Shown here one piece after another: positions 29,414 to 50,240 of a stretch of 64,000 nucleotides of DNA. Where the stretch lies: NCBI GenBank assembly GCA_963795085.1, contig CAWCFX010000006.1:384001-448000 (forward strand), read 5' to 3'. Positions within the stretch are counted from its first letter, which is position 1. Every line of letters begins with the position of its first letter. The notes under the pieces are model-generated. The model saw nothing but the letters and a program-made list of their open reading frames with translations, ran no database searches and had not been told where the DNA came from. This DNA is from an uncultured Gemmatimonadales bacterium (lineage in GTDB: Bacteria > Gemmatimonadota > Gemmatimonadetes > Gemmatimonadales > GWC2-71-9). The position numbers and the translations under genes were made by a program.

Positions 29414-29420
29414 GAGCGGG

Positions 29421-30089: not shown

Positions 30090-30139
30090 GGTGAAGACAG
30101 CCGGACAAGCAGCCTCACACCCACCTAGAAGGGATACCG

Positions 30140-31252: not shown

Positions 31253-31306
31253 GTAGGAAAATAGCGGGGAGGGTTGGGGGTGGGGGCCGGGATGGAGGAG
31301 GGGGGT

Positions 31307-31335
31307 CTGGCGGAAATGGTTGGTGGAGGCATACT
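31307..31335 (+). promoter_or_regulatory. Promoter module CTGGCG-N17-CATACT, copy 2
   Basis: Same boxes and spacing as copy 1, different spacer sequence. Confidence 0.6.
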
Positions 31336-31503
31336 GGTAGGGGCGGTTTGAACAGCAGGACAAGCCCAGTTAGACACACTCCGAAAGGCCTCATGCGGCT
31401 CACGGCAGTTTATCTCACCAGGCTCCTTATGAACGGTGACCCGTGCCAACCGTGCACTTGCATCGTTCCGAATGATCCTTGAGCGCTGAGCGAAGCCGAC
31501 GTA

Positions 31504-32445
31504 GTGTTCGAGGGCACCGTTCTGTGGCGCCGCACTTCAATCCTCGAGGGCAAGGACACTGTGGGGGGCAGGCTTCAGACGAGCCTCGATCCCGCCAAGG
31601 TGCCGGCCGGCGCGCAGCGGGCCACGCCGCTGCCGGCACGGGGCCACTATCAGCATCAACGCCATTTCCGCACCGAAACCGATGCCGCCTCCGGCCTTAC
31701 CCGGGTATCGGTGACCACCCATCCGGGCCGCTACTTCCTCTGGATCCAGCGGCCCCGCCTCACGTTCTTCTTTACCTACCCCACCGCACAGCCCGCCGAG
31801 GCTCCCGGGTTTATCTCCCTCGTCTACCGGACGCAGACGCCGCAGAACTTCGATATGCCGCTCCGGGTCTTCGCCGACCTCGTGGCCTGTTCGGCCGTGG
31901 CCCTCGACGTTGGCGGGATCCGGGTGGATTTCGCCCCGGATCAACTCGAAGCGCTGCAGGCCCTGGGAAGCCGTCTGACGACAGTGAGCAGTGAACAGTG
32001 GGCCAACTATCTCTTTATCGGATTCCCAACCAAGAGGGCCAAGGTAAGTCCGTCCATCAAGAATGTTTCGCCGGACCTTGTCAGGCATATCGGCTCAGGG
32101 GCGAAAGACGGCCAATATCCACTTATTGGCCGCAATCCGCTCACACATGTCGCAATTGGCTTTGATCAACAAGCATCCATAACTGAGCAGGGCATTCGCC
32201 CCATTCCTAGTCCCGGCGGCGCAAGTGGTACTGGATTATGGCGTGTCACGATAAGGCCAGCTTTGCTGGGTGGCCCCTCGGCATGGTTGGTTGCGATCTT
32301 TACCGACCACCTTGAGCAGGAGAATCTACTGGTTGGCACGCGAATCATCTATCATTTTGCACTAATTCGTGATCGCTGGCCAGATTTCCGTTCAATTGTG
32401 CCTTCGATTCCCTATGGCATACGTTTCCAAGTACCAAACCCGTAA
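31504..32445 (+). CDS. Probably chimeric ORF: GC-rich hypothetical N-half plus lower-GC trypsin-like protease fragment
   Basis: Composition shift near 31990; PSPGGASGTGLW..LVAI motif in the C-half. Confidence 0.5.
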   Translation: MFEGTVLWRRTSILEGKDTVGGRLQTSLDPAKVPAGAQRATPLPARGHYQHQRHFRTETDAASGLTRVSVTTHPGRYFLWIQRPRLTFFFTYPTAQPAEAPGFISLVYRTQTPQNFDMPLRVFADLVACSAVALDVGGIRVDFAPDQLEALQALGSRLTTVSSEQWANYLFIGFPTKRAKVSPSIKNVSPDLVRHIGSGAKDGQYPLIGRNPLTHVAIGFDQQASITEQGIRPIPSPGGASGTGLWRVTIRPALLGGPSAWLVAIFTDHLEQENLLVGTRIIYHFALIRDRWPDFRSIVPSIPYGIRFQVPNP

Positions 32446-32452
32446 GGTGGTG

Positions 32453-32550
32453 GCCCAACACGCGCTTGGAGTGGCCATTCGCGCCCGGCTAACCGAGGGT
32501 CGCCACCATACGCTGAGCGCGGGTTGCCGCTCAAGCGCAAACCGTTCGGG
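32453..32550 (+). mobile_element. attC-like integron cassette recombination site
   Basis: GCCCAAC (RYYYAAC) 7 nt after a stop; GCGCTTGGAG pairs with CTCAAGCGC leaving one extrahelical base; ends GTTCGGG. Confidence 0.75.
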
Positions 32551-32609
32551 TGCAACCGGCCGCTCCAGCTGACCTTGCGAGCAGGCAAGGCTTTTCCCAC
32601 CTTTGACCC

Positions 32610-32841
32610 ATGCCGACCCAACCACCGTTCGATTATCATGAGCTCTATGTTGCTGAGCGATCGGAAACTTGTCGAGGACCTCTGGGATTCGATAGCCCAG
32701 GATGCTGAGCTCGACACCGTTCCCCTAGGTGAGGATGACAAGCGGCTTCTGGACGAACGGTTGGCCGAGCATGAGCGAGATCCCGATCGCGGCTCGACCT
32801 GGGAAGAGGTAAAAGCTCGTATCCTGAAACGCGGCACTTGA
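32610..32841 (+). pseudogene. Addiction-module antitoxin (TIGR02574-like), frameshifted
   Basis: MPTQPPFDYHELYVAER, then +1 shift to LVEDLWDSIA...RLAEHERDPDRGSTWEEVKARI. Confidence 0.8.
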
Positions 32842-32855
32842 TGTCGCGTTTTTAG

Positions 32856-32935
32856 TGTCTATAAGGATGTTCGCCGAGCTCGTGTCCGGCGCTTCCCTAC
32901 GCCGTCTTCTACTTTACACGTGAGGACCTTACCAA
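32856..32935 (+). pseudogene. RelE/ParE toxin remnant
   Basis: Reads YKDVRRARVRRFP/YAVFYF across a 1-nt deletion, directly after the antitoxin; N-terminus missing. Confidence 0.7.
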
Positions 32936-33275
32936 CGTCATCGCTAGCACACATGTCCGTCGTCACCCCACGCGCTGGGAATCGCGTCGCTAGGACAGGC
33001 TGAAGCCTGCGAGGCATCGGCGACTTTTGAGGTCTGGCATCGGCGACCTTTGAGGTCTGGGAGTCGCTGCCGCGGTAAGTACCAGCTAGCCGTAAGCAGT
33101 CGGCCGGATGTGGCGCCCTGGAGCCCCTGCCCCCGGTTGGGACCAAACGGCATCGCCTGGTACAAGCCTGACCGCCCATCTATCCAATTGCCGCCGGGAG
33201 GCGGCCACGCTGGAAACCACCGGCTGGTGCCCTCCGTCCTGCCACTCCATGACCCCTGCCCCATCGCACCACCCA

Positions 33276-35546: not shown

Positions 35547-36368
35547 GGCTAGATCTCCCACCCGGATCCCTCTCCGCATCCCCATCTCCACGTGCACCAT
35601 CCCCGACCCCGGGTCGGTGATCAGGCAGTAGAGCACATAATCTCCCGCCACCAAATCCACCGGCAGGTACGCCGTCTGCCCCGGGCTCATCCGCGCCACC
35701 CCGGCTATCGCCTTCGCGATCTTGCCTGGCTTCTCCGCCTCCACCCAGTCCTCCATGGTGCGGCCCGGCTCGAGCCGGGCGAGCACAAGGTGATGCAGCT
35801 GGGCCCCCACGTTCTCCACCCGCACCAGCTGCGGCCCGGCCGGCCACGTCGCCGGTCCGGCGAACGCGAAGTCCGCCAGCCGCACCTGGGCGCCGGTGGT
35901 ATCGGGTCCCGAGTCTCCGGCGGCATCGGCCGCCCGCACCACCACTCGCTTCACCTCGCCGGTGAAGGCGTGCCGATGACCATCGGCTCCCCGCCGGACG
36001 CAGGCAAGCAGGTGCTCGCCCGGGTCCAGCCGCAGCACGACCGCTCCCGTGTCCCCCACCTCGGGTCCGCCCAGCGCCGGCGCCGTCGTCGTGGGGGCGG
36101 TGTCCAGCTCGGCGAGGAACCCGTCGAGGCCACTCCCCGCGCCAGAAGGAGGGAGCCGGAAGAGGACCAGGATGTGCCCCGCCCCGTCTTCCAGGACCTC
36201 AAGCCGGGTCCATCCCGCGGCCACGCTATCGGGCGCGCTCACCGTGCCGCCCCCGACCGTGGCCACCAGCCGCGGCATCGCCGGCCGATCGGGGGCGTCA
36301 CGCGCATCGCAGCCGGCCAGCAGGATCACCACGAGGAGAGATCGAGGCCGGAGAATCGTTTCGATCAT
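35538..36368 (-). CDS. Lipoprotein with two cupredoxin-like repeats
   Basis: LAGC lipobox; H...LLACV..HRHAFTGE and HHLVL...YCLITDP...HVEMGM (type-1 Cu-like H/C/H/M). Confidence 0.65.
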   Translation of the reverse strand: MIETILRPRSLLVVILLAGCDARDAPDRPAMPRLVATVGGGTVSAPDSVAAGWTRLEVLEDGAGHILVLFRLPPSGAGSGLDGFLAELDTAPTTTAPALGGPEVGDTGAVVLRLDPGEHLLACVRRGADGHRHAFTGEVKRVVVRAADAAGDSGPDTTGAQVRLADFAFAGPATWPAGPQLVRVENVGAQLHHLVLARLEPGRTMEDWVEAEKPGKIAKAIAGVARMSPGQTAYLPVDLVAGDYVLYCLITDPGSGMVHVEMGMRRGIRVGDLAGR

Positions 36369-36811
36369 GGGAATGGGCTCGAGCTGTCGGGCTGCATCCG
36401 GGAGAAGGGGAACCCGTTGCACCCGGTCCGCGGCGTGTCCGGTCGGGCAACGCTCGCCGACTCGGCGGCCTCGGCGCTCTCCGCCTGGTAGGCGCTGTAG
36501 CAGTAGGCCCACTGCCAGGGCAGCATCCCGTCGAGCGGTATCCAGTCTATCCGGGTCCAGAGCCCGCCATCGGCCGGGTTCGCCGGATCGTTCATCGCCA
36601 CGAGGAAACGCCGAACCGGATCCCAGAGCACAATGTGGTAGCGCGTGTTCGGATGCTGGACCCACTCGGCGGCCGTGATCGTGTAGCGGTTCCCGTAGTC
36701 GTCGGCAAAGGTGCCCAGCAGGGCGGAGGGCGGAGCGGCTCCGGGCACGGGCGACCGGGCAGCACAGCCGAGGACGGCCAGCGCCAGGAGGAGTAGCGAG
36801 TAGCGGAGCAT
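36365..36811 (-). CDS. Hypothetical lipoprotein
   Basis: VLGC lipobox; GTFADDYG, WTRIDW, GCNGFPFSRM; ATGA-coupled to the next gene. Confidence 0.75.
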   Translation of the reverse strand: MLRYSLLLLALAVLGCAARSPVPGAAPPSALLGTFADDYGNRYTITAAEWVQHPNTRYHIVLWDPVRRFLVAMNDPANPADGGLWTRIDWIPLDGMLPWQWAYCYSAYQAESAEAAESASVARPDTPRTGCNGFPFSRMQPDSSSPFP

Positions 36812-36862
36812 ACCGGAATCTAGCGTGAGCCCGTTTCGAGGGCGCATCCCAAGTGCCAGCCC

Positions 36863-37215
36863 CACGGTGGGGCGCTCCCATTGACTCACCTCGAGCTTCG
36901 AGGCGAATTAGCGCACACGGTGGGGCATTACCAATCACCTCAACTCGAGCTTCGAGGCGCTTTAACGCACACGGTGGGGCATTACCATCACATCACCTCG
37001 AGCTTCGAGGCGCTTTAACGCAGAGAGCGCCGAGTGGAACTACAAGTCCGCAGAAACAAGGATCGTTTCAGTACTCTTAGAATGAGATTGCTTCCGCGGT
37101 TCTCGCTGTTGCTTCTGCGCTCTCTGCGTTAAAGCGCCTCGGAACGTGCGTCCACGGCAATCCCAACGCCCAACCAAGCGCCTCGGAGTGCGAATCCAAG
37201 ACCATCACAACGCCC
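36863..37215. repeat. Palindromic MITE/REP-like element copy 1 (25-bp IR, 37006-37141) with triplicated 53-54 nt left flank
   Basis: CGAGGCGCTTTAACGCAGAGAGCGC and its perfect reverse complement. Confidence 0.9.
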
Positions 37216-37386
37216 AGTCAGGATGCCTGGGACCCCGGGTCAGGAAACCCCTGACAGGGTCTTGATCCCCTTCCCCGATTGGTTCAGTTCCTTGAGGACA
37301 TGTCGAGACCGGGACCCCTGGTTCGACGTGGATTGTGGGAGCCGGAAAGGCCGGCCCCATGTACCCTGTTCCGAAGGAGCGACATC

Positions 37387-37815
37387 ATGCGAGTCATGGT
37401 CTTGGTGAAGGCCGACCAGAATATCGAGGCGGGCGGGCTGCCCGACCAGAAGATGCTGGCCGATATGAACCGGTACAACGAGGAGCTGGTGAAGGCGGGA
37501 ATCATGCTGGATGGCGAAGGACTCCAACCGAGTTCCAAGGGCAAGCGGGTCCGGTTTTCCAAGTCGGGCACGACCGTCACGGACGGCCCCTTCGCCGAGA
37601 CCAAGGAGCTGGTGGCCGGGTTCTGGATGTGGCGGGTCAAGTCGATGGAGGAGGCGGTGAACTGGCTCAAGCGCGCTCCGTTCAGCGACGGCGCCGAGCT
37701 GGAGATCCGGCCCGTCTTCGAGGCCGATGATTTCGGCGCCGAGTTCACCCCCGAACTCAGGGAGCAGGAGGACCGGATCCGGGCCGGGGCCGAGGCGCTC
37801 AAGCACGCGACCTGA
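37387..37815 (+). CDS. YciI/DGPF-domain protein
   Basis: DGEGLQPSSKG.RV, DGPFAETKELVAGFW, EIRPV; AGGAG SD. Confidence 0.93.
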   Translation: MRVMVLVKADQNIEAGGLPDQKMLADMNRYNEELVKAGIMLDGEGLQPSSKGKRVRFSKSGTTVTDGPFAETKELVAGFWMWRVKSMEEAVNWLKRAPFSDGAELEIRPVFEADDFGAEFTPELREQEDRIRAGAEALKHAT

Positions 37816-37954
37816 TCCCACCATCTGACCCATGCCATCCCGGCGGGTTTCCCCGGGCGCCCGCCATTGCCGGCGGGCCCCGTGGCTGGCTCCCGCCCAG
37901 TCCTGCCGCCCAGCCTTGTCTTAGCGCCTGGCTCTATCGACCTTTGAGCCCCAC

Positions 37955-39547
37955 GTGCCCGATACCCGCCTGATTCTCCCGCCCGCCGGCAGCTCCTCGC
38001 CGCCCACCGGCGGACGGGTACGCGAGATCCCCGAAGACCTGCTCCGGGAAGCCGCCAACCGGCTCCGGCTGAGCGCCCTGATCGGCGTGGTGCTCTGGCT
38101 GGTCGGCCTGACCCTCGACCATCTCGCCCGCCAGGCGCTGGAGCCGGACAACCCGGCCTGGCGGCAGCTCCACGCGGGCGACGCGGTAGCGGCGGTCGGG
38201 ATCCTCACCTCGCTCGGTTTCTATCTCTACGCCCGGTACTCCCGCCGGCCCCCGCGGTTCATGCTGGACCTGGGGCTGGTCTATCTCGTCCTGACCTCGT
38301 TCTCGCTGGCGATTATCGCCCACGTGGGGTCCGGCGTGCATACCGCGACGATCCAGCCCACCTTCAGCTGGGTCGCCTCCCTGGTGCTGATCTTCGCCGC
38401 GATCATTCCCAACCCGCCCGGGAAGACCCTGGTGGCCGGCCTCATCGCCGTCTCCATGAACCCGGTGGCCATGCTCATTGCCCGGGCCCAGGGCGCGTGG
38501 GACTTCGAGCCGGGCAGCCACGCCTTCCTGATGCACTATCCCGACTACATCATGGTGGGCGTGTCGGTCGTCATCTCCCGGGTGGTGACCCGGCTGGGCC
38601 AGCAGGTGGGCAAGGCGCGCGAGCTGGGGAGTTACCGGGTGGGCGAACTGCTCGGCAAGGGAGGCATGGGCGAGGTCTATCACGCGACTCACCGGATGCT
38701 GGCCCGGCCCGCGGCCATCAAGCTGATCCGGGCCGGGATGCTCGGCGGCGGCGACCCCGAAGCGCTGCGACTCGCCCTCCGGCGGTTTCGCCGGGAGGCC
38801 GAGGTGGCGGCGAGCCTCCGGTCTCCCCACACGGTCGAGCTGTATGACTTCGGCGCGACCGAAGACCAGAGCCTCTACTACGTCATGGAGTTGCTCGACG
38901 GGCTGGACCTGGAGGCGCTGGTCCGGATGCACGGCGCCCAGCCCGCCAACCGGGTCGTCCACATCCTGCGCCAGGCCTGCGAATCGCTGGAAGAGGCGCA
39001 CGCCCGCGGCCTGGTGCATCGCGACATCAAGCCGGCCAACATCCACCTGGGCCGAATGGGGCTGCGGCACGACTTCGTCAAGGTGCTCGACTTCGGACTG
39101 GTGAAATCCATCGCGGACGCCGCGGCGGGTGGCGACCAGGAGCACTCGCTGGGGACGGGGATGGGACAGGCGGCGGGCACCCCCGCCTACATGGCGCCGG
39201 AGACCGCGCTGGGTGAAGCGGTGGATGCCCGGACCGATCTCTACGCCCTCGGCTGCGTCGCCTATTACCTGCTCACCGGCACGGTGGTCTTCGAGGCCGC
39301 GACCTCGCTGCAGGCGGTGGCCCGGCATATCAACGACCCGCCGGTCCCACCCTCCGAGCGGCTGGGTGCCCCGCTCCCGGCCGGCCTGGATGCGCTCGTC
39401 CTGGCCCTCCTGGCCAAGCGCCCGGAGAACCGGCCCGGCGACGCGGCCGAGGTGGCGCGACGGCTGGAGGCGGTGGAGGTGGAGCGATGGGGGGAGACCC
39501 AGGCGGCCGCCTGGTGGACAGAACTTGGCGGTAAAACGGGGCGGTAG
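37955..39547 (+). CDS. Membrane-anchored Hanks-type Ser/Thr kinase
   Basis: N-terminal TMs; GKGGMGEVY, AIK, HRDIKPAN, DFG, GTPAYMAPE. Confidence 0.93.
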   Translation: MPDTRLILPPAGSSSPPTGGRVREIPEDLLREAANRLRLSALIGVVLWLVGLTLDHLARQALEPDNPAWRQLHAGDAVAAVGILTSLGFYLYARYSRRPPRFMLDLGLVYLVLTSFSLAIIAHVGSGVHTATIQPTFSWVASLVLIFAAIIPNPPGKTLVAGLIAVSMNPVAMLIARAQGAWDFEPGSHAFLMHYPDYIMVGVSVVISRVVTRLGQQVGKARELGSYRVGELLGKGGMGEVYHATHRMLARPAAIKLIRAGMLGGGDPEALRLALRRFRREAEVAASLRSPHTVELYDFGATEDQSLYYVMELLDGLDLEALVRMHGAQPANRVVHILRQACESLEEAHARGLVHRDIKPANIHLGRMGLRHDFVKVLDFGLVKSIADAAAGGDQEHSLGTGMGQAAGTPAYMAPETALGEAVDARTDLYALGCVAYYLLTGTVVFEAATSLQAVARHINDPPVPPSERLGAPLPAGLDALVLALLAKRPENRPGDAAEVARRLEAVEVERWGETQAAAWWTELGGKTGR

Positions 39548-39576
39548 GACTGGGCGGTAGTGACTGGGCGGTAGGG
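39527..39576. repeat. GGGCGGTAG tandem repeat (reverse CTACCGCCC family)
   Basis: 4 units; the second supplies the kinase stop. Confidence 0.85.
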
Positions 39577-39610
39577 CTGGACCACGCACATTCGGAAAGG
39601 TGTAGAGCGC

Positions 39611-39988
39611 ATGCGACTCAAGACCATCTTCACCCTCGCCGCCATCTACCTGGCGGTCCTCGGACTCGGCTTCATGCTGGTCCCCCGGCAGATCGGGGTC
39701 GGCGCCGTGCCTCTGGATCCCTCCCCGGCGCTGGTTGCCTATCTCCGGCTGTTCGGCGGACCCTTCCTCGGTATCGCGGTGTTGAACTGGCTGGCCCGGA
39801 GGGAAGCCCCCTCCACCGCGCTCACCGCCATCGTGCTGGCCAACGCGGTCGGGTTCGGGTGCGTGGCGGCCATGGACGTCTGGGGCGTCTTCGGCGGCAC
39901 CGCGCGCCCGATCGCGAAAGTGTTCCTGGTGATCCACGCGGGTCTTGCTGCCGCGTTCATCCTGGCATGGCGGAGTCGGCGGGCATAG
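39611..39988 (+). CDS. Four-TM hypothetical membrane protein
   Basis: Hydrophobic helices, GC codon bias. Confidence 0.75.
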   Translation: MRLKTIFTLAAIYLAVLGLGFMLVPRQIGVGAVPLDPSPALVAYLRLFGGPFLGIAVLNWLARREAPSTALTAIVLANAVGFGCVAAMDVWGVFGGTARPIAKVFLVIHAGLAAAFILAWRSRRA

Positions 39989-40130
39989 AGGGCGGGCAGA
40001 AAGGGACAGGCGTACCAGGCGGGCGGGAGGAGCGAGTTGTTGTCCGCCCCGTTCGTCCGCCTTTTTCGTCCGCCCTGTATGCCCGCCCCTTTCGCCCGCG
40101 CTTCATACCCGCGCAATCAAAAGGTCTATC

Positions 40131-40562
40131 ATGGCACTGCTGGTCGGCGTACTGCTTGGCGTGGCGGTCGGGCTCCTGGGGACCGTGAGCGGCATGGACC
40201 GGGACCGGGCGTTCTACCCCGTCGCCACGATCGTCATCGCGTCCTACTACGCGCTCTTCGCGGTGATGGGCGGAACCTCGCGGGCGCTCGCGGTGGAGAT
40301 GCTGATCGGCCTGGTCTTCCTGGTTGCCGCGGTCTGGGGCTTCAAGTCCTCCCTCTGGATCGTGGTGGCGGCCATGGCGGGGCATGGTCTCATGGATGCC
40401 GTGCACGGCAGCCTCGTGGCCAATGACGGCGTCCCGGTTTGGTGGCCGCTGTTCTGCGGGTCTATCGATATCACCCTCGCGGCTTACCTCGGCGTGGTAC
40501 TCTGGAGACAGAGGCACCGGGCAGCGGGACCAGGCGGTATGAGTTCCGTTCCCACCGGCTGA
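40131..40562 (+). CDS. Membrane protein (DUF6010-like)
   Basis: DRDRAFY, IASYYALFA, HGLMDAVH, GVPVWWPLFC. Confidence 0.75.
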   Translation: MALLVGVLLGVAVGLLGTVSGMDRDRAFYPVATIVIASYYALFAVMGGTSRALAVEMLIGLVFLVAAVWGFKSSLWIVVAAMAGHGLMDAVHGSLVANDGVPVWWPLFCGSIDITLAAYLGVVLWRQRHRAAGPGGMSSVPTG

Positions 40563-40566
40563 CGGC

Positions 40567-40962
40567 ATGCACACCGCCGCCCGGCTCGTCGTGGTGCTCG
40601 TCGGTTGTTATCTCCTCGCCCTGGGGCTCGTGGCGTGGATGGCGCCGGCACGGGCCGAGCGATTTCTCGGCGGATTCGCCGGGTCGGCACGTGCGCACTA
40701 CCTGGAGCTGTCGCTCCGCCTCGTCGCCGGCTGGGCCGTCCTCGCCTCCGCTCCCCACATGCTGTTCCCCGGGTTCTTTACTCTCTTCGGCTGGGTGCTC
40801 CTCCTCACCACCGCCGGACTCTTCGCCATACCGTGGCGGCTGCACCGGCGCTTCGCCGAGTGGGGTGTCCCCCGGGCCATGCGACACCTGAAGCTGGTGG
40901 CGGTTGCTTCGTTCGCGCTTGGGGGGTTGATCATCGCGTGCCTCGTTGCCGGCAGGGGCTGA
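40567..40962 (+). CDS. Hypothetical membrane protein
   Basis: FAGSARAHYLE, PWRLHRRFA; 4 TMs. Confidence 0.75.
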   Translation: MHTAARLVVVLVGCYLLALGLVAWMAPARAERFLGGFAGSARAHYLELSLRLVAGWAVLASAPHMLFPGFFTLFGWVLLLTTAGLFAIPWRLHRRFAEWGVPRAMRHLKLVAVASFALGGLIIACLVAGRG

Positions 40963-41064
40963 AGTACCGCCTCCCCTGGCAAGCCGGCCGGCCATGTCCC
41001 TCAGCGGAGTCTAGTCCATGGGCGTCAAGGGAACCCACCTCCATCTTGGCGGCCAGGCAGATGC

Positions 41065-41340
41065 GCACATGGGGCGTTCCCATTGCCTCACCTCGACCTT
41101 CGAGGCGCATTAACGCAGAGAGCACCGAGTGTAACTACGAGTCCGCAGAAACTGGGATCGTTTCAGTTCATTATGACTTTGTTTCCGCGTCCTCTTGGTC
41201 CTTCTGCGCCCTCTGCGTTAAAGCGCCTCGGAACGCGAATCCACGACAATCCCAGCGCCCGCCAGAGCGTTACAGCGCCCCGAGCCCGAATCCACGACCA
41301 TTTCAACGCCCACGCCAAGCCTTACAGCGCCCTCGAGCCG
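41065..41340. repeat. Palindromic MITE/REP-like element copy 2 (IR 41101-41230)
   Basis: Arms, interior and both flanks homologous to copy 1. Confidence 0.9.
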
Positions 41341-41344
41341 GACC

Positions 41345-41761
41345 TTCAACCCTTCTGTCCCCAGGCTCTACCCTGATGTGACACCGTTCCAAGGTGTCCT
41401 CCTTTTGATTCAGTCCCGGCTGCCGCGGGGGTGAACCCCATTGCCGGCCGCTCCAAGGTGACTGGCCGCCCGGATCGAGCCTCCTCTACCCCGCGTACAA
41501 CCCGCCTGCCGGGAGCTTCAACCCGATTGTCCGGCGAGTCCAAACTTCCTGCCGGGGGGTCCGAGCCTCCTGGCCGGGTGCTTCGAGCCGGCCACCCCAC
41601 CTTCCAACCCTGCATGCCGGCTGGTTCGACCCTGTTGTCCCGGGGGTTCCACCTGCCTGCCGGGTGGTTCCACCCACGTGAGGGCCGGTTCCACCCTGCT
41701 GACTCACCACTTCCACCCTGCTGCCGGGTGGTCCAACCCGACTCGATGCGTCCTCCAACGG
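41345..41761 (+). repeat. Phased degenerate array: 20 cores (TYCVASCC-like) at 21-22 nt spacing
   Basis: Cores at 41345, 41366, 41387, 41409, 41431, 41452, 41474, 41496, 41517, 41539, 41560, 41582, 41603, 41625, 41647, 41668, 41689, 41711, 41732, 41754. Confidence 0.8.
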
Positions 41762-42005
41762 GAGCGCCTGTGTCCTCCCGTGGGGATGGTTCGCTGTCCG
41801 TGCGGCCGGGCCGCGGGGTGCGATGAAACCGTTTGCACTGCCCTCCCCTGGACGCATGATATCTCGCGGCCGCGCAACTGGTTGAGCGCGGGTGCTGAGC
41901 ATCGGGCCGCGGGCCTCGGCCGGGAGGCTCGAGTGGTCTGGCACGCCGGTTCCGTTGGGGGGCATCCATCGCGGGATTCATCATGACCACTCACAGGAGC
42001 GTCGT

Positions 42006-42854
42006 ATGAAGCGCATCGTTCGTCGTAAACTGGAGATGGTGAGCCGGGTGCGGGAGTTCTGCCGGAGTCATCCGATCGATATCGACGGCTACATCGAGGC
42101 GATGGCCCGGCTGGAGGACCGGATGGCGCGGGCGGAGGCGCTGGCGGTGCTGCAGGGGACCGGGTTCCTTCACCAGAGCGGCAGCACCCGGTCCAAGGCG
42201 GTGATCCGGGAGGAGATCCGGGAGCGGCACCTGCGCCACCTGGTGCGGATCGCCCGCGGCGCGGCGGGCGACGTCATGGCGATCACCTGCCGGTTCCGCC
42301 TGCCGAAGAAGGGCATCAACGGGCAAGCCTTCGCCTCCGAAGCCCGGGCGATGCTGGGCCAGGCGGCGGAGTACCGGGCGCTGTTCATCAAGGACGGCAT
42401 GCCGCCGACGTTCATCGAAGACATCCATAAGCTGCTGGCCGAGTACGAGGGAGCGGTGACGGGGCAGTATGAAGGGACGGCGTGGCACGTGGGAGCGGTG
42501 GCGGAGCTGCCTGCCCTGGCGCGGGAGCTGTGCCAGCTGGTGAAACGGCTGGACGCGATCAACCAGATGCGGTTCCAGCACGACGCGGGACTCCTGGGGG
42601 CCTGGGACGCGGCTCGGCGGGTGTCGTGGCCGGGGGCGGGGGCGAAGGCGGTGGTGGAGGTGGCGGCGGAGGAGGCAGGAGAGGTGATGGAGGTGGCGGG
42701 AGAGGTAATGGAGGTGGCGGGAGAGGTGGTGGAGGGAGAGGGTCTGGGGCTGGTGGCGTTGGGGGGGCTGGCGGAGTTCCTATCCAGGGGCATACTGGTA
42801 GGGCAACGGCGACTCGTGAGCAATCCCTCGTTGGTCAGAAACCTTACATCTTAG
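42006..42854 (+). CDS. All-helical hypothetical protein with 7-aa repeat tail
   Basis: AGGAG SD; amphipathic helices ending LLGAWDAARRV; tail EVAGEVM repeats (21 nt). Confidence 0.8.
   Translation: MKRIVRRKLEMVSRVREFCRSHPIDIDGYIEAMARLEDRMARAEALAVLQGTGFLHQSGSTRSKAVIREEIRERHLRHLVRIARGAAGDVMAITCRFRLPKKGINGQAFASEARAMLGQAAEYRALFIKDGMPPTFIEDIHKLLAEYEGAVTGQYEGTAWHVGAVAELPALARELCQLVKRLDAINQMRFQHDAGLLGAWDAARRVSWPGAGAKAVVEVAAEEAGEVMEVAGEVMEVAGEVVEGEGLGLVALGGLAEFLSRGILVGQRRLVSNPSLVRNLTS
42768..42796 (+). promoter_or_regulatory. Promoter module CTGGCG-N17-CATACT, copy 3
   Basis: Exact boxes and spacing, upstream of the + strand cassette-like run. Confidence 0.6.
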
Positions 42855-42865
42855 CGGGGGTTACA

Positions 42866-43462
42866 ATGCGTGCCCTGGGGATCACCCTGCTGCTGAGTTC
42901 ATTGTCTTCTCTTCTGGCGGCGCAAACCACATCGAGCGCACGCGAGTTCAAGCCCAGCTCCTGCGCCGCCGCCGATAGCGCCCTGGGACGGCCGATCTCC
43001 AAGCCCCGCCAACCGATCCAGGGGATGTATTCCCGGGCAACCGGAGAGTCCATGGTGTTCTCAGCCGACCCCTGGGCCTACAATGCCTCGCGTCCCCTCC
43101 GTGCGGTCTGGGTAACCACGAAGTTCGCCGGTGACGGGCCGGAGGCAATGCCCATCCTGGGCTTCCAGGTGCGCCTTGAGGATACGTTGCTGAGGGTCGG
43201 CCCGGATGCCCGGCTGAGCCTCCAGTTCGACAGTGCCGCCGCCCAGGTCATCGGGGAAATGCAGGGACAGCGCTTTGGTTCTGGGCGCAAGATCGACCAG
43301 GTGCTGACGATCGGGCTCACCGGGCCGGAGTCACGGCAACTGGCCGCTGCGTACCGGGTCCGGGGCATGATCGGGGAACTCGCTTTCGAGGTTCCTGAAC
43401 GGGCCCTGGAGGGCATTCGGGCCGTCTACGTCGCGGGGGCATGTGGAGTAAGGCTCCGGTAG
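42866..43462 (+). CDS. Secreted hypothetical protein
   Basis: Signal peptide MRALGITLLL..LAA-Q. Confidence 0.7.
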   Translation: MRALGITLLLSSLSSLLAAQTTSSAREFKPSSCAAADSALGRPISKPRQPIQGMYSRATGESMVFSADPWAYNASRPLRAVWVTTKFAGDGPEAMPILGFQVRLEDTLLRVGPDARLSLQFDSAAAQVIGEMQGQRFGSGRKIDQVLTIGLTGPESRQLAAAYRVRGMIGELAFEVPERALEGIRAVYVAGACGVRLR

Positions 43463-43577
43463 CATTCTGCCGCCTGGCACGACGATCGATCATGATCAGC
43501 GCGGTTGCCGCTCAAACAAGCTTTCCGACACTCGCATCGATCGACCGCTGGCAAGTGGACACGACTAGTGAGATTCT

Positions 43578-43964
43578 ATGAGATACCGCAGACCGTCTTC
43601 CACACATCCCGCCTTGCTCCTGTTCGCCATGCTGACGCTACTCAATTGCTCGGGAGGCACCGCTGACCCAACCAATGATCCCCTGCTGGATCCGGTACTC
43701 AATGGTGCCTGGGTGGATGGCATACAGTCCGGCCCGGTAAAGATTTACATAACCGAGTTCACGTTCAGCAACGGGCGTTTCGAGTGGACGTTTGACGGCG
43801 ACCTCCAGCAGAGAGGCGAGTATGACACTCGCGATGGGATTCTCACGGTTACCATTCACAATAACTACGGCTCACCGCAACGCACGCTGGGCGACTACAG
43901 CAGACCTTACGCCATTACCGGCCATACTCTCACGTGGGGCGGGTGGCAGTTCACAAAGCATTAG
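43578..43964 (+). CDS. Lipoprotein, lipocalin-like beta protein
   Basis: LLNC lipobox, LNGAW, GEYDT; lower GC than flanks. Confidence 0.7.
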   Translation: MRYRRPSSTHPALLLFAMLTLLNCSGGTADPTNDPLLDPVLNGAWVDGIQSGPVKIYITEFTFSNGRFEWTFDGDLQQRGEYDTRDGILTVTIHNNYGSPQRTLGDYSRPYAITGHTLTWGGWQFTKH

Positions 43965-44057
43965 CTGATCTCCAAAAAGCAATCAACGCGTTCGGCTACC
44001 CGGTGAACGCCACCCGCGTGCTGAGCGTGGATTATCGCACGGGCGCAAACCGTTATG
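43965..44057 (+). mobile_element. Degenerate attC-like site
   Basis: GTGCTGAGCG...GCGCAAACCGTTATGA right half shared with the 32453 site. Confidence 0.5.
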
Positions 44058-44085
44058 ACGCGCCTTCACAGTCTTCAAGTAACCT

Positions 44086-44310
44086 ATGGCTCCCGACACG
44101 ACCTGGCAGCAGGGTATCCTGTGGGCCATAGGCGCCGTGATTCTTGTGGCGGCCTGGCTCATGATGGAAGGTGCCGGCGATATTGCGGAAGAGATCGCGA
44201 ACCCTTCAAGGGATGACACACCGTGGTCGACGGTCAGGCCACGAGTGATCCTGGCATACTTTCTCGTCGCCGCGGTCGGGGTCGGCATTTTCCTTCTGCC
44301 CGGTGGTTGA
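44086..44310 (+). CDS. Small two-TM protein
   Basis: Two hydrophobic helices; follows the attC-like site. Confidence 0.55.
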   Translation: MAPDTTWQQGILWAIGAVILVAAWLMMEGAGDIAEEIANPSRDDTPWSTVRPRVILAYFLVAAVGVGIFLLPGG

Positions 44311-44451
44311 TGTCAGGTCCCAGCTAGTCCCACGGCTGGGGTTGAGCCGGCGGGTCTATCCGGAAACGGCCGGGGGAGGCATACTGGGGTGGACCGTCAA
44401 GAACCGATACGGCCATGCGCTCGCCAGGCCACTACTACGGGTGTCGCTGTC

Positions 44452-44928
44452 ATGCCGGAGTTGCGGAGTCCACTCTCGCCGGACGAATGCTCCCGCCGCC
44501 TGGTGGCCCGGGCGGGCGAGGCCCAGTTGTACCGGGGGGAAGTTCTGCCGCATGACACTCGGATGCTGGCCCGGGTATCTGGCCGTCGGTTCCAATTATG
44601 GCGTTACGCGGGGCTGCGGAATGCGTTCGGCTATCGCTTCCATGGTCACCTGGTTCCGGTCAACGGTGCCACCGCGATCCGCGGGACCGTTCGTCTCGGC
44701 CTGAGTGCGATACTGCTGCTCGCACTCCTCCCGGCGTGGGTCATCGGCCTGTCAAGCCGGAGTCCGCAGCTTCGTTCGATTGAACTCGTGGAACTTCGCG
44801 TGGCCCTGCTCTGGGGGATTGGTGTCGTCCTGATTGGAACGGTGCAAGCCATCGCCGCCCATCGGTTCGCGGATCCCTTCCTGGCCTTTTTGAGGAATAC
44901 GCTCGAGGCGACGGTCACGCACCGGTAG
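44452..44928 (+). CDS. Hypothetical membrane protein
   Basis: RNAF..F.G.L motif plus two TMs; preceded by GGAGGCATACTGG module at 44375. Confidence 0.65.
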   Translation: MPELRSPLSPDECSRRLVARAGEAQLYRGEVLPHDTRMLARVSGRRFQLWRYAGLRNAFGYRFHGHLVPVNGATAIRGTVRLGLSAILLLALLPAWVIGLSSRSPQLRSIELVELRVALLWGIGVVLIGTVQAIAAHRFADPFLAFLRNTLEATVTHR

Positions 44929-45005
44929 CAGCCGGACATCGATTGAAGTAGTACACAGTCACCAGCCACCCGAGCATTCCCGCGGTCATTCGCCCTTTGG
45001 TTCTC

Positions 45006-45317
45006 ATGCCGCACAGCGTACATGCACGGTCTCTCGGAACCCGGGTCATGCAGGGGTTGGGCCTCGCCCTGCTCCTGGTGGTGTTCCGCATGGGCGCGGG
45101 TCTGCTTGCCGCGTCCATTCGCTGGAACGAGGTGATAATGGTGGGAGCCGCCGCCTCACTGGGCGGAGTCCTGGGTGGCGCAACGTTCTACGCGACCGAC
45201 GGCTGGCGAATCGCGGGAGGATGGCGCCGGACGCTGGCCAACGTCCTTTCGCTGCTGGCCTACTGCGCCGGTGCAGGCGGCGCCATTCTTCTTCTCCCGC
45301 CACCAGAGAGCTTGTGA
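45006..45317 (+). CDS. Small membrane protein
   Basis: Three TM segments. Confidence 0.6.
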   Translation: MPHSVHARSLGTRVMQGLGLALLLVVFRMGAGLLAASIRWNEVIMVGAAASLGGVLGGATFYATDGWRIAGGWRRTLANVLSLLAYCAGAGGAILLLPPPESL

Positions 45318-45806
45318 GCGCTCGGCAATGGAGCGCATGGGTGCTGGCCGCTTCCCTGGGCTGTTTCGGGTGCGGCATCGGCCGCACGGACGCCTGCCGA
45401 GCCCATCTACCGCTACATCAACGTCCTGGACGGCACCGAGATCCGCCTGGGTGAACCGTTCGACCATCGCGCGCTGGCCAAGGCTCTCGATGATACGAGC
45501 TATACCCTCATGCCGGGCACCTTTAGCGGCGGGGGAACGGTCTCGATCGTCGTCCGCACGGACACCGCCTCCGTCGTCCGGTCCATGACTTTCATCTACG
45601 ACGGCTCCGAGACGGTGGACACGAAGGTCGCCAGCTACACTGCCAGCCTGGGAAGGCCGGCGACGGAGCGGGACGACCGCTCCGGCCGGTCCACGTATGT
45701 CTGGGAGGATTCGACCACGCGGTTCGAGCTGGTCTCCTCGCCTCTGAGCACGCCCGGCCTGTGGTCCCGTCTCCTGGACCGGCCCGGCCGGGGAGAACAG
45801 TTCTGA
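45314..45806 (+). pseudogene. Lipoprotein-like hypothetical gene, +1 frameshift near 45374
   Basis: GTG start with signal ..LGCFGC; removing one G joins it to ASAARTPAEPIYRY...WEDSTTRFEL. Confidence 0.6.
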
Positions 45807-45849
45807 CGCGGGTGGTGTGCGGGCGGCAGAATCCCTTCACCCACGGCAT

Positions 45850-45983
45850 CGAGGCGCATTAACGCAGAGGGCACAGGTAACGCACCAGGTCCTGTCTGAT
45901 GAGGTGAAAAGTGCTTTTACAACAACCAGCTGTTTCTGCGGTCTCGTGGTTCACTTCCGCGTTCTCTGCGTTAATGCGCCTCG
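45850..45983. repeat. Palindromic MITE/REP-like element copy 3 (inverted)
   Basis: Perfect 20-bp IR CGAGGCGCATTAACGCAGAG; interior CCGCAGAAAC on the minus strand. Confidence 0.9.
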
Positions 45984-46090
45984 GTGCCGACACCCACGAC
46001 TATGCCCACGCCCACAACTCTTCACCGGAGGTCGTGAGCCCCGAGTCGCCGGGTTGCGGCGGTTTCACCAGACACGGGAGAACCCCAGGA

Positions 46091-46930
46091 ATGACGCTAC
46101 GCCTCCTCCTCCTCCTCACCCTCGGACTGGCCGGCACCATTGCCGGCCCACTCCAGAGTCAGCAGTTGCGGCCCCAGCCGCCGAGCCTGCCCGGCTTGTC
46201 CCTGCCCCTCGCGCTCGGACTCGGGGATGCCGTTTGGGTGGCGCCGGTGCCCCGGTGGAGAATCACCGCGCTCGGCGCGCTCCTGGCGGCGGCGCCGGCC
46301 CGGGACAGCGCTGACGTCGCCTGCCCGATGCCGGTGCAGCGGCTCCGGCCCTCGATTGACGACGGCATGCCCGTCCTCAAAGGCGACTCGACCACTGCCC
46401 CCGCGGCGACTCGGTCGCTGGCGATGCCGTCCTGTGACAATCCCCTCTTCGAACGAAGGGCAGCCCCACCCCATGAGCCTCCTCTCCCGACTCCCCCGCG
46501 TCCTGGTCCTCGGCCTGCTGGGAGTGCCGGTTTCCCTGTCGGCGCAGACCCGGATAGACATCGGACCCAGCGTCGGGCTCTACCTGCCCCTCCGCTCGTA
46601 CGTCGGCCCGGGGTCCTCGTTTTTCCCTCCCTTCAGCGAGAGCAGCGAGTGGACCCAACGGAACGCCCTCGCCGTGGGGGCCCATGCCGCCATGTGGCTG
46701 GGCCGCCGGTGGGGCGTCGCCGCGAGCTACAATTACGCCGGAAGCGACGTGAGCAACCCCGCCGCGGGCGGCATGCCGGGCGGCCGGCTGGACGGCTCGG
46801 TCCAGGTCCTGACCGCCGAGCTGCAGGCCCGCCTCGGAAACACCGATCGCCCCTTTCAGCTGGTCTTCACCGGCGGGGCCGCCTATATCACCCGGAGTGG
46901 AGACGCCTTCGCCCAGGTGGATGGCCATGA
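46091..46930 (+). CDS. Secreted hypothetical protein (CPMPV..MPV..CDNPLF); true end probably near 46470
   Basis: Signal peptide; frame runs on into the next gene, suggesting a lost stop. Confidence 0.4.
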   Translation: MTLRLLLLLTLGLAGTIAGPLQSQQLRPQPPSLPGLSLPLALGLGDAVWVAPVPRWRITALGALLAAAPARDSADVACPMPVQRLRPSIDDGMPVLKGDSTTAPAATRSLAMPSCDNPLFERRAAPPHEPPLPTPPRPGPRPAGSAGFPVGADPDRHRTQRRALPAPPLVRRPGVLVFPSLQREQRVDPTERPRRGGPCRHVAGPPVGRRRELQLRRKRREQPRRGRHAGRPAGRLGPGPDRRAAGPPRKHRSPLSAGLHRRGRLYHPEWRRLRPGGWP

Positions 46931-47111
46931 CGCGGTAGGCGCCGTCCTCGGCCTGGCGTCGCGGCGGGAGCTGGGATCCCGCTGGGTGGCCACCGGGAGC
47001 GTCCGGGTGCTGATCTACTCCCTGGAGTTGCGCGACGAGGCCATGACCTACGAGGCGTCCACCCAGGCCGACATGCTGGGACAGGTCACCATCGCCTACC
47101 GAGTCTTTTAG
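46473..47111 (+). CDS. Outer-membrane beta-barrel protein
   Basis: Signal LSA-Q, alternating beta strands, C-terminal IAYRVF. Confidence 0.75.
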   Translation: MSLLSRLPRVLVLGLLGVPVSLSAQTRIDIGPSVGLYLPLRSYVGPGSSFFPPFSESSEWTQRNALAVGAHAAMWLGRRWGVAASYNYAGSDVSNPAAGGMPGGRLDGSVQVLTAELQARLGNTDRPFQLVFTGGAAYITRSGDAFAQVDGHDAVGAVLGLASRRELGSRWVATGSVRVLIYSLELRDEAMTYEASTQADMLGQVTIAYRVF

Positions 47112-47145
47112 GTGGCCGGCCGGTTTCCGCCCTGATCTCCCATCC

Positions 47146-47207
47146 CGTCGCTTCAGCGACCGTCCTGCCGAGGGCAGGCTTCAGCCTGTCCTCTCGCGCG
47201 ATCCCAG
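47146..47207 (-). repeat. REP-like double-hairpin element (internally deleted copy)
   Basis: Reverse complement GAGAGGACAGGCTGAAGCCTGC..CCCTCGGC..GTCGCTGAAGCGAC. Confidence 0.8.
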
Positions 47208-47360
47208 GGCTGAGCGGACAGTGGACCCTGGGTGGCGGAGCGGCATGGACGGTAGGGACCAGGCGGAACGGGGATGAAACGTCATCCCAGGTGGCACCGA
47301 TGGACGGCGGTATGCCGGTAGCCTGGAGTCAGCCCTTCCCCGGTTTCGTTGAGAGGTGAC

Positions 47361-47687
47361 ATGAGAGCTGTACTCATCATCCTGGCCGTTATCTGGATTG
47401 TCTATCTCGTGGTGAGCCGGACCAGGCCTGGTCCTCCCGGCTCCCCTGGGGAACTGCGACGTATTGAGGAGAGGATGGCTGCGGTCCAGCAACGGGTAAA
47501 GAGCATCCAGGAGAATGATCTGACCACTCCAGATGCCCTCCGCCGTAAACTGGAGGACATGAAGGTATTGAAACGAGTGTTCGAGGAAGATCCCGCGGCC
47601 TTTGCCGAACATCCGGACGTACTCAAGCGATTCGAGGATGACTTCGCCCGGTTGCAAGCGACCGTTGATTCACACAATGGTGCCTGA
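47361..47687 (+). CDS. Membrane-anchored coiled-coil hypothetical protein
   Basis: GAGGT SD, N-terminal TM. Confidence 0.65.
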   Translation: MRAVLIILAVIWIVYLVVSRTRPGPPGSPGELRRIEERMAAVQQRVKSIQENDLTTPDALRRKLEDMKVLKRVFEEDPAAFAEHPDVLKRFEDDFARLQATVDSHNGA

Positions 47688-48099
47688 CACGCGCCTGGAA
47701 CGGGCAACCGTCGGCGCGCAACCAGGGACCGGGTTGCGAGCACGCCCTTGGCTCGGGACCGTTTGCTGCCTTGCGTTGGTACTGAGTGCCTGTGCGGGTC
47801 AACCGCTCACGGTCCCGATCCCTCCGGCGGGCGCACATGCGGCGAGGCAGGACCTCGAGGTCTGGCAAGGGGCGCGGGCGACTACCCTCCACGGGGTAGT
47901 CGTGACGTCGGACAGCTTGAGCGGAGTGCCGGTCAGACAGCCTCCCTCATGCGATTCGTGCCGCATACCCATTCCCCTGGCGGCGATTGACTCGGTTCGC
48001 GAGGTAAGCATTGACAGGGCCGCGCTCGGCACCATGGGTCTGGTGGCAGGCTTTGCCGCCCTGACGCTCCTGGCCTGGCACGCGAGCGCGGGCGATTGA
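47677..48099 (+). CDS. Hypothetical lipoprotein with CDSC motif
   Basis: LSAC lipobox, DSLSGVP..CDSCR, IDSVR. Confidence 0.6.
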   Translation: MVPDTRLERATVGAQPGTGLRARPWLGTVCCLALVLSACAGQPLTVPIPPAGAHAARQDLEVWQGARATTLHGVVVTSDSLSGVPVRQPPSCDSCRIPIPLAAIDSVREVSIDRAALGTMGLVAGFAALTLLAWHASAGD

Positions 48100-48193
48100 C
48101 CTCTGCACGCGTGTGGGGCGGCCCTGCGCGCCGGGCCATCCGCTGGACGCCGGTTATGCTGAGCGCGGTTGCCGCTCACGTCCTCCGTTCAGG
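48100..48193 (+). mobile_element. Degenerate attC-like site
   Basis: TGCTGAGCGCGGTTGCCGCTCA motif, fold-back with CGTGTGGGGCGGC, ends GTTCAGG. Confidence 0.55.
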
Positions 48194-48218
48194 TGGCTTT
48201 CTCACTCCCCGCACACTG

Positions 48219-48684
48219 GTGTCGAAGACACCGATCATCTTCAGCACTACCCACCGCGTCCAGTTCTCGGAACTCGATCCCTATAACCACGTCGGCACGG
48301 GGCGATTTGCCACGTACTTCGTCGACCACCGCATGAAGGGGCTCAGCCAGCACATCGGCTGGGATGCCGCCACTCTCATCAATCTCCCGTTCGCGGTGTG
48401 GGTTCGCCGGCTGGAGATCGATTTCGTCCGGCCGGTCTCCGCCGACCGGGAGTTTACGATAACCTCCTTCGTGCGTGAGTTTCGGGGGCCGGACGCCTTC
48501 ATCGAGTGCACCATGACGGACACGACGGGCAAGACGCTGTCCCGCGCCCTGATGATCGTGGCATGCGTCCGACAAGGCTACCAACCGCGCCATGGAGTGG
48601 CCGGGGCGGTACCTCCAGGAGCGCGCCGGCCGGCATTCGCCTCGATCACGGCCGGCGTCGCCCTCGGCATGCTCTCGGCCCTGA
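48219..48684 (+). pseudogene. Hot-dog acyl-CoA thioesterase, +1 frameshift near 48570
   Basis: RVQFSELDPYNHV; GTC C GAC restores CVDKATNRAMEWP. Confidence 0.75.
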
Positions 48685-48793
48685 CCCCGGGCAATGCCCT
48701 TGGCGTCCCGGTGGGAACTCCCCAGGTTCATCGCGCACTCCCACCCGTCCTTCCCGGCGCTCCGAAACTCATCAGACAGCGATCGCGTAGGCG

Positions 48794-50240
48794 ATGACAC
48801 CTTTCCGGGGTTCACCGAGGAGACGAGTTTCGCTTCTCACGCTTGGCTGCCTTTGCCTCACGGCCTGCGGGCCGGCTTCGCTGGGCGCCCAGGACGCCGG
48901 GACGCGGGACACGACGATCCGGGTTCACTCCCGCGCGCTGGGAGAAGAGCGGGTCGTGGACATCGCATTGCCCCGGCACTACGCCTCAGGCACCGAGCGC
49001 TATCCGGTGATCGTGGTGCTCGACGCAGAGTTCCAGCACGACATCGCCGCCGCCGCGGCCCGGTTCTACGCCTCCGCGTCCATGGTGCCATCCGCCATCG
49101 TGGTCGGCGTGCGCAACACCCAGCGCATGCGCGACCTGGCGCCGGTGCCGGGCTTCACGCCACCTCCGCAAATCGCCGGGGCGAACGGCGGCGCCGACCG
49201 GTTGATCGCCTTTCTCGCCGACGAGCTGCTCCTCCGGATCGACTGCGCGTACCGGACCGTGCCCATGCGGGTGCTGATCGGCCACTCGCTGGGCGGCTTG
49301 TTCGCGCTCCACGCCCTGGCCACCCGGCCAGCCCTCTTCACCGGGTACGTCGTCATGGAGCCGGCCATCTGGTGGAACCAGGAGCGGGAGTGGCGCACCG
49401 CCCGCGAGGCCCTGGGCCAGCCCGACGCGCGGCGCGCGCGGGTCATGCTGGTGAACACGCCGCGCATGGCCGTGGACACGACGCGCTAAGGGCGGAGACG
49501 CACCCATGGTGCGGCTCCTGGCGGTAACCGGCGAGACGCACGAGAGCATGGCGGCTCCGGGGATGCTGCTGGCCTTGCGCACGCTGTTCGCCGATTTCCG
49601 CCCCTCCGACTGGAAACCGGGGACCCGGCCGGTCGCGATGCTGGAACGCTACGATTCGCTGGCGGGACGCGTGGGGTACGCCGTGCCGATCCCCCTCCCC
49701 GCGTACGAGGCAACGATTCGCATGTCGATCCACGCCCGTCACTTCGACGACGCCGAGCGCATGCTGCCGAGGATGGAGCGCGCCTTCGGGGTGGCGGCCG
49801 GGCGGGAGTTGCGTGAGCTGCTGGCGGCGGAGCGCGCCACCCCGCTGTCGCCGGCGTTCGTCGCGCTGGAGATTCCCGCGAGGCGGCCCACGGCGGCGCA
49901 GGCGGCCCCGTTCCTCGGCCGCTGGCAGAAGACCGGCTCCGGCGGCGGGCACGAGATCGTGGTTCGTCCCTCGGGCGACACGATCGTGGTGCACAGCCGC
50001 GTCCAGCTGCCGGACGGGAGCTGGGACGAGGGTGACCAGTATGTCATCCAGGTGACGCCGGCGGGAAAGCTGGAGTGGGGACTGCCCTGGTTCCGCGGCC
50101 TGGCCGCGTTGCTGGTCCAGGTCGGGGAGATGCTCCCCGACGGGACCATGCGGGTTACCCGCCAGCCGCGGGGCTGGGTCCCACGCGGGCCCGGGGGCGA
50201 GACGAACAGCACGGAGACCTTTCGCCGGGTCGAGGGCTGA
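48794..50240 (+). pseudogene. IroE/Fes-like esterase with C-terminal extension, split at 49487-49490
   Basis: RYPVIVVLD, RMRDL, GHSLGG; TAA plus frameshift; continues as 49506..50240 (THESM). Confidence 0.8.

Follow-up and report, generated by a model that had tools for sequence, protein, structure and literature searches.

The element described here lies in a window of 64,000 nucleotides (nt) from the genome of an uncultured Gemmatimonadales bacterium (contig CAWCFX010000006.1 of assembly GCA_963795085.1, positions 384,001 to 448,000), the window being the whole stretch that was analysed. It consists of a tandem array of about 20 short units, followed on the same strand by a predicted sigma-54-type promoter and by a gene for a 282-residue protein. 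Coordinates standing alone are those of the window; G000 denotes the window's own genome (3.9 Mb), in which the window belongs to contig C6, while G086 and G065 are other genomes and L-numbers are individual loci. The features of the locus are as follows:

41345..41775, + strand: tandem array of about 20 units of 21 or 22 nt (autocorrelation, layout and tandem-repeat scan)
41380..41408, + strand: hairpin GACACC-N7-GGTGTC with a T-rich tail, at the distal array edge (terminator-like scan, one found and 1.1 expected by chance)
41748..41777, + strand: two direct GTCCTC half-sites 22 nt apart at the proximal array edge, GCGTCCTC at 41748 and GTGTCCTC at 41770 (motif scan)
41939..41953, + strand: putative sigma-54-type -24/-12 element TGGCACGCCGGTTCC (motif comparison with relatives)
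41995..41999, + strand: ribosome-binding site (RBS) AGGAG, 6 nt before the ATG (sequence; GGAGG-type sites precede the aligned ATG in relatives)
42006..42854, + strand: gene for a protein of 282 amino acids (aa) (open reading frame (ORF), codon-position GC and family matches)
42668..42735, + strand: coding 21-nt repeat, 3.2 copies with 89% matches, giving EVAGEVM heptads (tandem-repeat scan and translation)

The array and its gene

In 41345-41775, the base autocorrelation reaches 0.42 at both lag 21 and lag 22 (z=6.0 for either), 0.44-0.46 at lags 64/65 and 0.46 at lag 43 (z=8.2-8.6), the strongest signal, compared with a null of 500 dinucleotide shuffles in which the 99th percentile of the best z is 3.5. 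The periodicity that a preliminary description had placed here is significant. Its peak at lag 43 identifies a 43-nt higher-order repeat that combines a 21-nt with a 22-nt unit, which explains the mixed spacing noticed earlier. When the array is laid out at 21.5 nt, 20 phase positions are readable from 41345 to 41753, in agreement with the 20 cores first counted, but the core pattern then given for them, T[TC]C[ACG]A[ACG]CC, is found at only 10 distinct positions (11 starts listed, two of them overlapping). About 13 units are well kept (41474-41760) and the first seven are weak; the core of the unit reads G[GC]TYCNAVCC, accompanied by a CTGCCGG-type block, and the array is C-rich on the sense strand of the gene. 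The linkers are less variable than had been stated, nine of the 20 units having a CTGCCGG/GCCGG-type block in common. Tandem Repeats Finder detects the array as fragments only.

Regarding its coding status, the array was correctly taken to be non-coding, as the ORFs lying over it have a flat codon-position GC (0.69/0.68/0.66 and 0.70/0.69/0.69, compared to 0.72/0.45/0.87 for positions 1/2/3 of the gene) and matched no family in a Pfam search. An Rfam scan of 36000-47000 at E<=1 returned two chance miRNA matches only, and the folding of the array as RNA, on both strands and against shuffles, gave no structure signal (z=-1.3 and +0.65). Considering these folding scores and the presence of a conserved promoter downstream of the array, the variant of the first proposal in which a protein binds the RNA of the array is without support.

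The gene had been described as an orphan, a view that does not hold, since residues 1-215 of its product match a large unnamed family of proteins of about 230 aa, for which a profile search found 5,299 cluster representatives at E<=0.001. Of 101 genomes sampled from the same taxonomic family, 16 contain matches to this N-terminal part of about 215 residues. The family is multi-copy in Gemmatimonadales, with six matches in G000 and 12 in G086, ten of the latter full-length, and one member is named Gemmatimonadales by one source. In a sample of the phylum, which takes in one unpublished genome (G138), it is present in 52 of 125 genomes of family f1 and five of 69 of f2, and in none of 106 genomes of ten other families. 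Two metagenome scans were made, the first, queried with the window protein, finding none and the second giving three loci. Searches of Pfam, NCBIfam and PHROG revealed no relative of the protein family and no recognisable DNA-binding family, and sequence searches of the Protein Data Bank (PDB) with family profiles of 16 and 81 members found nothing below E=0.08. An ESM Atlas model of a relative, P0005 (pLDDT 0.79, pTM 0.55), has its own family and generic helical bundles as structural neighbours (LemA, TM 0.45/0.62), which is to be taken as a lead only.

At the C-terminus, 110 of the 149 top family representatives end in AA, mostly as ..PAA. The ssrA- and CtrA-type tails, which also are of the AA type, act as degradation signals, and by analogy with them the ..PAA tail suggests controlled proteolysis of the family. 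The window protein and its 98% twin P0003 have instead a longer, lineage-specific tail without the AA end, carrying three EVAGEVM heptads; the 21-nt repeats previously noticed in the tail of the gene are real, and coding.

Recurrence of the module

The array and the gene were proposed to be two parts of one system, and they do form such a unit, the pairing recurring in five of five full-length paralogues of G000 and, across genera, in most relatives. Starting at its distal side, the module is ordered as GTGTCCTC-type sites (often palindromes), an array of 200-700 bp with a unit of 21-22 bp, the -24/-12 promoter, a leader with the RBS, and the protein of about 230 aa. It is widespread in soil Gemmatimonadales, where the repeat array, the sigma-54-type promoter and the small, putatively helical protein are found together. 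The architecture and its recurrence are observed throughout the comparisons below, in which period, position and strand polarity are kept while the unit sequence is not.

A periodicity scan of the whole G000 genome, controlled for codon periodicity and using a strict score, gave 13 strong arrays of about 21 nt, two of which are coding heptads inside large genes and one a 63-nt palindromic repeat. Arrays lie directly upstream of all five full-length paralogues, these five modules being spread over three large contigs, and a family-profile search beside the arrays of this genome found no member beyond those five. Among 14 further copies from five other genomes (nine from G086), every 1.5-kb upstream flank has a stretch with a period of about 21 nt according to a lenient detector, which fires on coding DNA too; the periods are 20.9-21.5, and 10 of the 14 stretches are within about 770 nt of the gene start. 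Held-out relatives were scored with the same strict measure as the genome scan, and periodicity was found in nine of 16 upstream flanks compared to none of 15 downstream flanks. A lenient array caller, used without a matched control, called arrays in 38 of 47 modules.

Upstream of most copies the arrays persist across genera, despite proteins that have diverged to 25-40% identity. They keep a period of 20.7-21.65, a position of about -100 to -700 from the start, and their strand polarity, with more C than G on the sense strand of 30 of the 36 arrays, a count that is no true probability because copies from related genomes are related and not independent. Meanwhile, array similarity is hardly associated with protein identity (r=0.10 over 377 pairs), and only the closest pairs keep similar units, such as L010 and L053, with 81% protein identity and an array similarity of 0.53. 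The window copy and L072 share 56% protein identity, and their array similarity is 0.27 against a background of 0.29. When a unit motif common to the arrays was sought, GTCC was merely 1.4-fold enriched (132 seen, 92 expected), therefore simple repetition of the edge motif described below does not account for the arrays. No conserved neighbouring gene was found among 19 loci. In addition, a synteny comparison with the same-genus genome G065 returned only paralogous kinase-type matches, and no DNA orthologues of one G086 module were found in five same-genus genomes.

Two loci of G086 have layouts of their own. L006 (C1:315790-319410) carries six 43-nt units that are 97% identical, at -685 to -470 before the gene, a likeness that is a sign of very recent expansion; after this stretch come four GAGTGTCCTC sites, three of them direct and one inverted. 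L036 (C4:145900-150000) has two family genes in tandem, 1.1 kb apart, and as array and sigma-54-type promoter are present at the first gene only, the second is probably co-transcribed with it.

Predicted promoter, edge motif and neighbouring repeats

Sigma-54 promoters follow the consensus TGGCAC-N5-TTGC, having the -24 GG and the -12 GC at a fixed spacing. Judged by comparison with relatives, the element between array and gene is a predicted sigma-54-type -24/-12 promoter and not the sigma-70 promoter formerly suggested (TTGCAC-N16-CATGAT, 41833-41860), a consensus scan of 40900-43000 for sigma-70 promoters finding 0 sites. Of 31 copies, 21 have the word TGGCA[CT]-N5-[ACT][TC]GC no more than 220 nt from the start, usually at -120 to -160, where chance would give 0.003 per copy; genome-wide, G000 has 104 matches (105 by overlapping count). 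Variants of the form GG-N10-GC are present in four further copies, three with TGGCCC and one with CGGCAC. A slightly looser pattern is present in 12 of 16 held-out copies, as opposed to one match in the downstream controls, and TGGCA[CT] stands at -60 to -135 in 13 of the 14 further copies. Moreover, G000 possesses rpoN (PF04552 at C2:375987, 215 bits) and, for the enhancer-binding activators, twelve strong PF00158 matches.

In the window, TGGCACGCCGGTTCC has the -24 GG, while its -12 part reads TTCC, with TC rather than GC, instead of TTGC, and it is placed 67 nt from the ATG, compared to about 120-135 nt in most relatives. The window copy looks like a divergent, atypical and possibly decaying member of the family, given the loss of the -12 GC, the short leader and the replacement of the PAA tail.

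The upstream regions of the modules have a motif of their own, as GAGGACAC/GTGTCCTC is their commonest non-trivial 8-mer. In 39 kb of upstream DNA there are 60 occurrences of GTGTCC[TA]C where 2.9 are expected (about 20-fold), and it is present in 27 of 47 modules; 19 of the 47 have an inverted pair, some being clear palindromes of the form AGTGTCCTC-N4-GAGGACACT. The sites are clustered, with as many as eight to a cluster, and most of them lie on the distal side of the array, at its edge; the distance between palindrome and promoter is 317-513 bp in 11 of 17 cases measured. In the window, the putative activator sites upstream are single half-sites and one everted hairpin only: the distal GTGTCCTC half-site (41394-41401) is within the hairpin at 41380..41408, and the GTCCTC pair at the proximal edge recurs, by eye, at the same 22-nt spacing in L072, L073 and the copy on contig C2 of G000. 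Clusters of GTGTCC[TA]C in G000, followed as a route to the regulator, numbered three, none of them informative. A further palindrome, CCTCATTGTGAGG, is contained in a 64-nt unit repeated nine times at G000:C1:426990-427560. Its other occurrences are at C4:6725-6790, on the proximal edge of the C4 array, and at C1:1345830, where it is reversed, and this palindrome may be the version of the edge motif proper to this genome.

The paralogous array on contig C2 (about 15410-14950) aligns with the window array along its whole length, with an identity of 0.476 in register and 0.44-0.45 when shifted by one or two units, so that both are the same type of array with weak unit-by-unit orthology. This copy (L002, C2:13682-16744) is a truncated module lacking promoter and gene, which ends against a convergent AraC-type gene and starts about 60 nt beyond the stop codon of the one G000 integron integrase that scores above cut-off (C2:15552-16487, TIGR02249, 375 bits against a cut-off of 265). 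There is no integron integrase on contig C6. Just upstream of the window array, at 41080-41340, there is a palindrome (..TTAACGC .. GCGTTAA..) that resembles attC, an imperfect inverted repeat with R''/R' cores, when judged against the consensus, and no second attC-like site closes a cassette just after the gene at 42006-42854.

Other repeats accompany the locus and its genome. A long attC- or REP-like palindrome (..CTTCGAGGCGC.TTAACGCAGAGAG .. CTCTGCGTTAAAGCGCCTCGGAAC..) is found in the window at 36863-37216, 41080-41340 and about 45850-46013, with arms tandemly repeated in units of 52-53 nt and about 25 matches across the genome. Intergenic arrays of short units are located at 1612-1754, 4459-4558, 8861-8942, 12348-12573, 14486-14706 and 29421-29525, comprising the 8-mers AGTGGGTC (18 copies) and GGGACAGT (28 copies), the 9-mer CCCTCAATT (11 copies), and 13- and 17-mers. 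The regions 28600-33100 and 42860-48800 have few ORFs with the usual codon bias of the genome (GC3 filter), and their small ORFs are without a Pfam family; they may be foreign or fast-evolving DNA. Elsewhere in G000, intergenic arrays of 21-22 nt without a family gene are present at C3:379600-380060, C1:876560-876960 and C1:1345870-1346230, one having TTCAAC cores like those of the window and one being the reverse complement of the C4-type unit.

Possible function of the array

On the basis of its sequence context, the array is probably a non-coding upstream control region of a self-contained module repeated many times in Gemmatimonadales, acting as the enhancer or looping region of a sigma-54-type promoter. 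Transcription would depend on sigma-54 and on an unlinked enhancer-binding activator, and the array would grow by tandem duplication of a unit of two helical turns, with the consequence that anything bound along it or at its far edge stays on one face of the DNA relative to the promoter even as units are added or removed. The array could then be an architectural scaffold or a multi-site docking track, setting the access of the activator to the promoter. According to PMC4740811, sigma-54 enhancers were predicted and found to tolerate indels of 10-11 bp and not of 5-6 bp, so that units of 21 bp could come and go with the geometry intact.

Several observations weigh against this interpretation. 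About five arrays of G000 have no adjacent family gene, and the unit consensus differs from array to array, even among those of a single genome, which means that one sequence-specific regulator cannot read them all. Curvature would be in keeping with a 10.5-bp A/T harmonic, which dominates over other components in only eight of 26 arrays, thus this sign of curvature is not general; the helical phase of the distance between palindrome and promoter gave at best p=0.015 over eight helical repeats tried, which is not robust. The edge motif is not enriched genome-wide in G000 (293 seen, 293 expected), whose own modules carry few copies of it. No activator gene was found next to any module in G000 or G086 and, owing to its TTCC, the window copy may not be a working sigma-54 promoter.

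Comparing the module with known systems, it resembles the sigma-54 enhancer regions of NtrC/glnAp2, NorR/norV and PspF/pspA in having a predicted -24/-12 promoter and distal, often palindromic upstream sites. NorR is said to have three activator sites at norV. Known enhancers of this class have two to three sites within about 100-200 bp, whereas the module has 10-30 tandem two-turn units over 200-700 bp, its unit sequences vary from copy to copy and the activator is unlinked. Activation from a distance occurs there by DNA looping, and according to PMC4740811 the interval tolerates changes by whole turns. Contingency-locus tracts, such as the TAAA tract of nadA in Neisseria, are also tandem tracts between a regulatory site and a promoter, in which the copy number could tune expression; however, the units of the module are long (21 bp) and mostly degenerate, therefore slippage should be rare. 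No variation in copy number was seen here, four DNA sequencing runs having yielded short contigs of low depth of which none spans the array, and no RNA run was listed as containing the locus. A search of the published literature found no description of such arrays.

Among the alternatives, the one first proposed is that the product of about 230 aa occupies its own array by cooperative binding. Such binding could serve to regulate its own gene or to form a storage track, and every paralogue would read the private unit sequence of its array. Array and gene are inherited together with no other conserved gene beside them, the differing units of paralogues within one genome would need paralogue-specific readers, of which the module protein is the only one, and very close pairs (L010/L053) do keep similar units. 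Nevertheless, self-binding is unlikely, considering that the Pfam, NCBIfam, PHROG and PDB searches gave neither a DNA-binding family nor a solved relative, that array similarity does not follow protein identity, either overall or between the window copy and L072, and that gene-less arrays exist, as the C2 copy does. The array may also be a satellite without function of its own that is tolerated, whole-turn duplications being the only length changes that a sigma-54 interval allows. This would agree with an unconstrained unit sequence, with the 21+22 structure of the window array, with expansions as recent as that of L006 and with the tolerance of enhancers to helical-repeat indels (PMC4740811). 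Bacterial genomes usually lose useless DNA, and arrays of several hundred bp that persist across genera, beside proteins of 25-40% identity, and keep a consistent strand polarity in 30 of 36 cases make such a satellite quite improbable.

The remaining alternatives are considerably weaker. An iteron origin or a partition centromere of a plasmid-like or integrated element is suggested by direct repeats of about 22 bp on one DNA face beside a gene, as in the plasmid iterons of R6K gamma ori, pPS10, F and RK2, whose phased repeats of 17-22 bp stand upstream of a rep gene with a product that binds them, as the module product could. The long phased arrays of sopC of F (12 x 43 bp) and parC of R1 are similar as well, the sopC unit being equal in length to the 43-nt higher-order period. 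These analogies, already drawn in the preliminary description, fail on context and are very unlikely to apply: modules occur in 5-12 copies per genome dispersed over large chromosomal contigs, compared to one origin per replicon, no Rep, ParA or ParB family, nor one of the ParM/ParR type, is found in or beside the module (Pfam of neighbouring ORFs; 19 loci) and no origin features were found, and a sigma-54 promoter at a fixed distance between repeats and gene is not known from those systems. Equally remote is a link to integrons, with the repeats as binding or recombination sites of IntI and the module as a cassette. The integron core consensus is RYYYAAC/GTTRRRY, to which some cores (GTTCAAC) conform, the only sequence-similar array of the genome follows the single integron integrase, and an attC-like palindrome is just upstream in the window; yet the integrase adjoins just one of about ten G000 arrays, and that one the truncated C2 copy, none is present on C6, the other arrays have quite different cores, and the palindrome is a dispersed repeat. 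Finally, it is extremely doubtful that the array is a protein-coding heptad repeat (21 nt being seven codons) on either strand. Open frames do run through it, such as the minus-strand ORF 41346-41990, and two other regions of the genome with 21-nt periodicity code for heptads inside large genes, but the mixed 21/22 spacing shifts the frame, the codon-position GC is flat with no Pfam match over the array, and the period of L006 is 43 nt.

Returning to the array as an enhancer or looping region, its persistence across genera and its strand polarity favour a function beyond toleration, which could be that of a scaffold, a docking track or a filament path, while the unit diversity weighs against a single sequence-specific reader, and the tests for a common core, curvature and phase were negative or weak. 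In a more speculative version, which we hold to be unlikely, the arrays would be tracks for a protein filament in register with the DNA helix, nucleating at the GTGTCCTC edge sites and gating the looping between enhancer and promoter. The filament would be made of the putatively helical module product of about 230 aa or of a nucleoid protein of the phylum, and would spread in 21-bp steps towards the sigma-54 promoter. If so, each of the paralogous modules, of which a genome has up to a dozen, would be under private repeat-number control, a bacterial enhancer architecture without a described counterpart.

Enhancer-like control from a distance has its bacterial model in sigma-54 promoters, of which the known examples have two or three sites for the activator. 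In the conserved layout described here, tens of two-turn repeats separate the edge sites from the promoter, in front of an unannotated family of thousands of proteins. For this uncharacterised family, a likely sigma-54 regulon, a shared cis motif and the C-terminal ..PAA tail are the first handles. If the layout is functional, it would offer a natural system for how the length, phase and occupancy of looping DNA set transcription, as well as for how a multigene family is switched.

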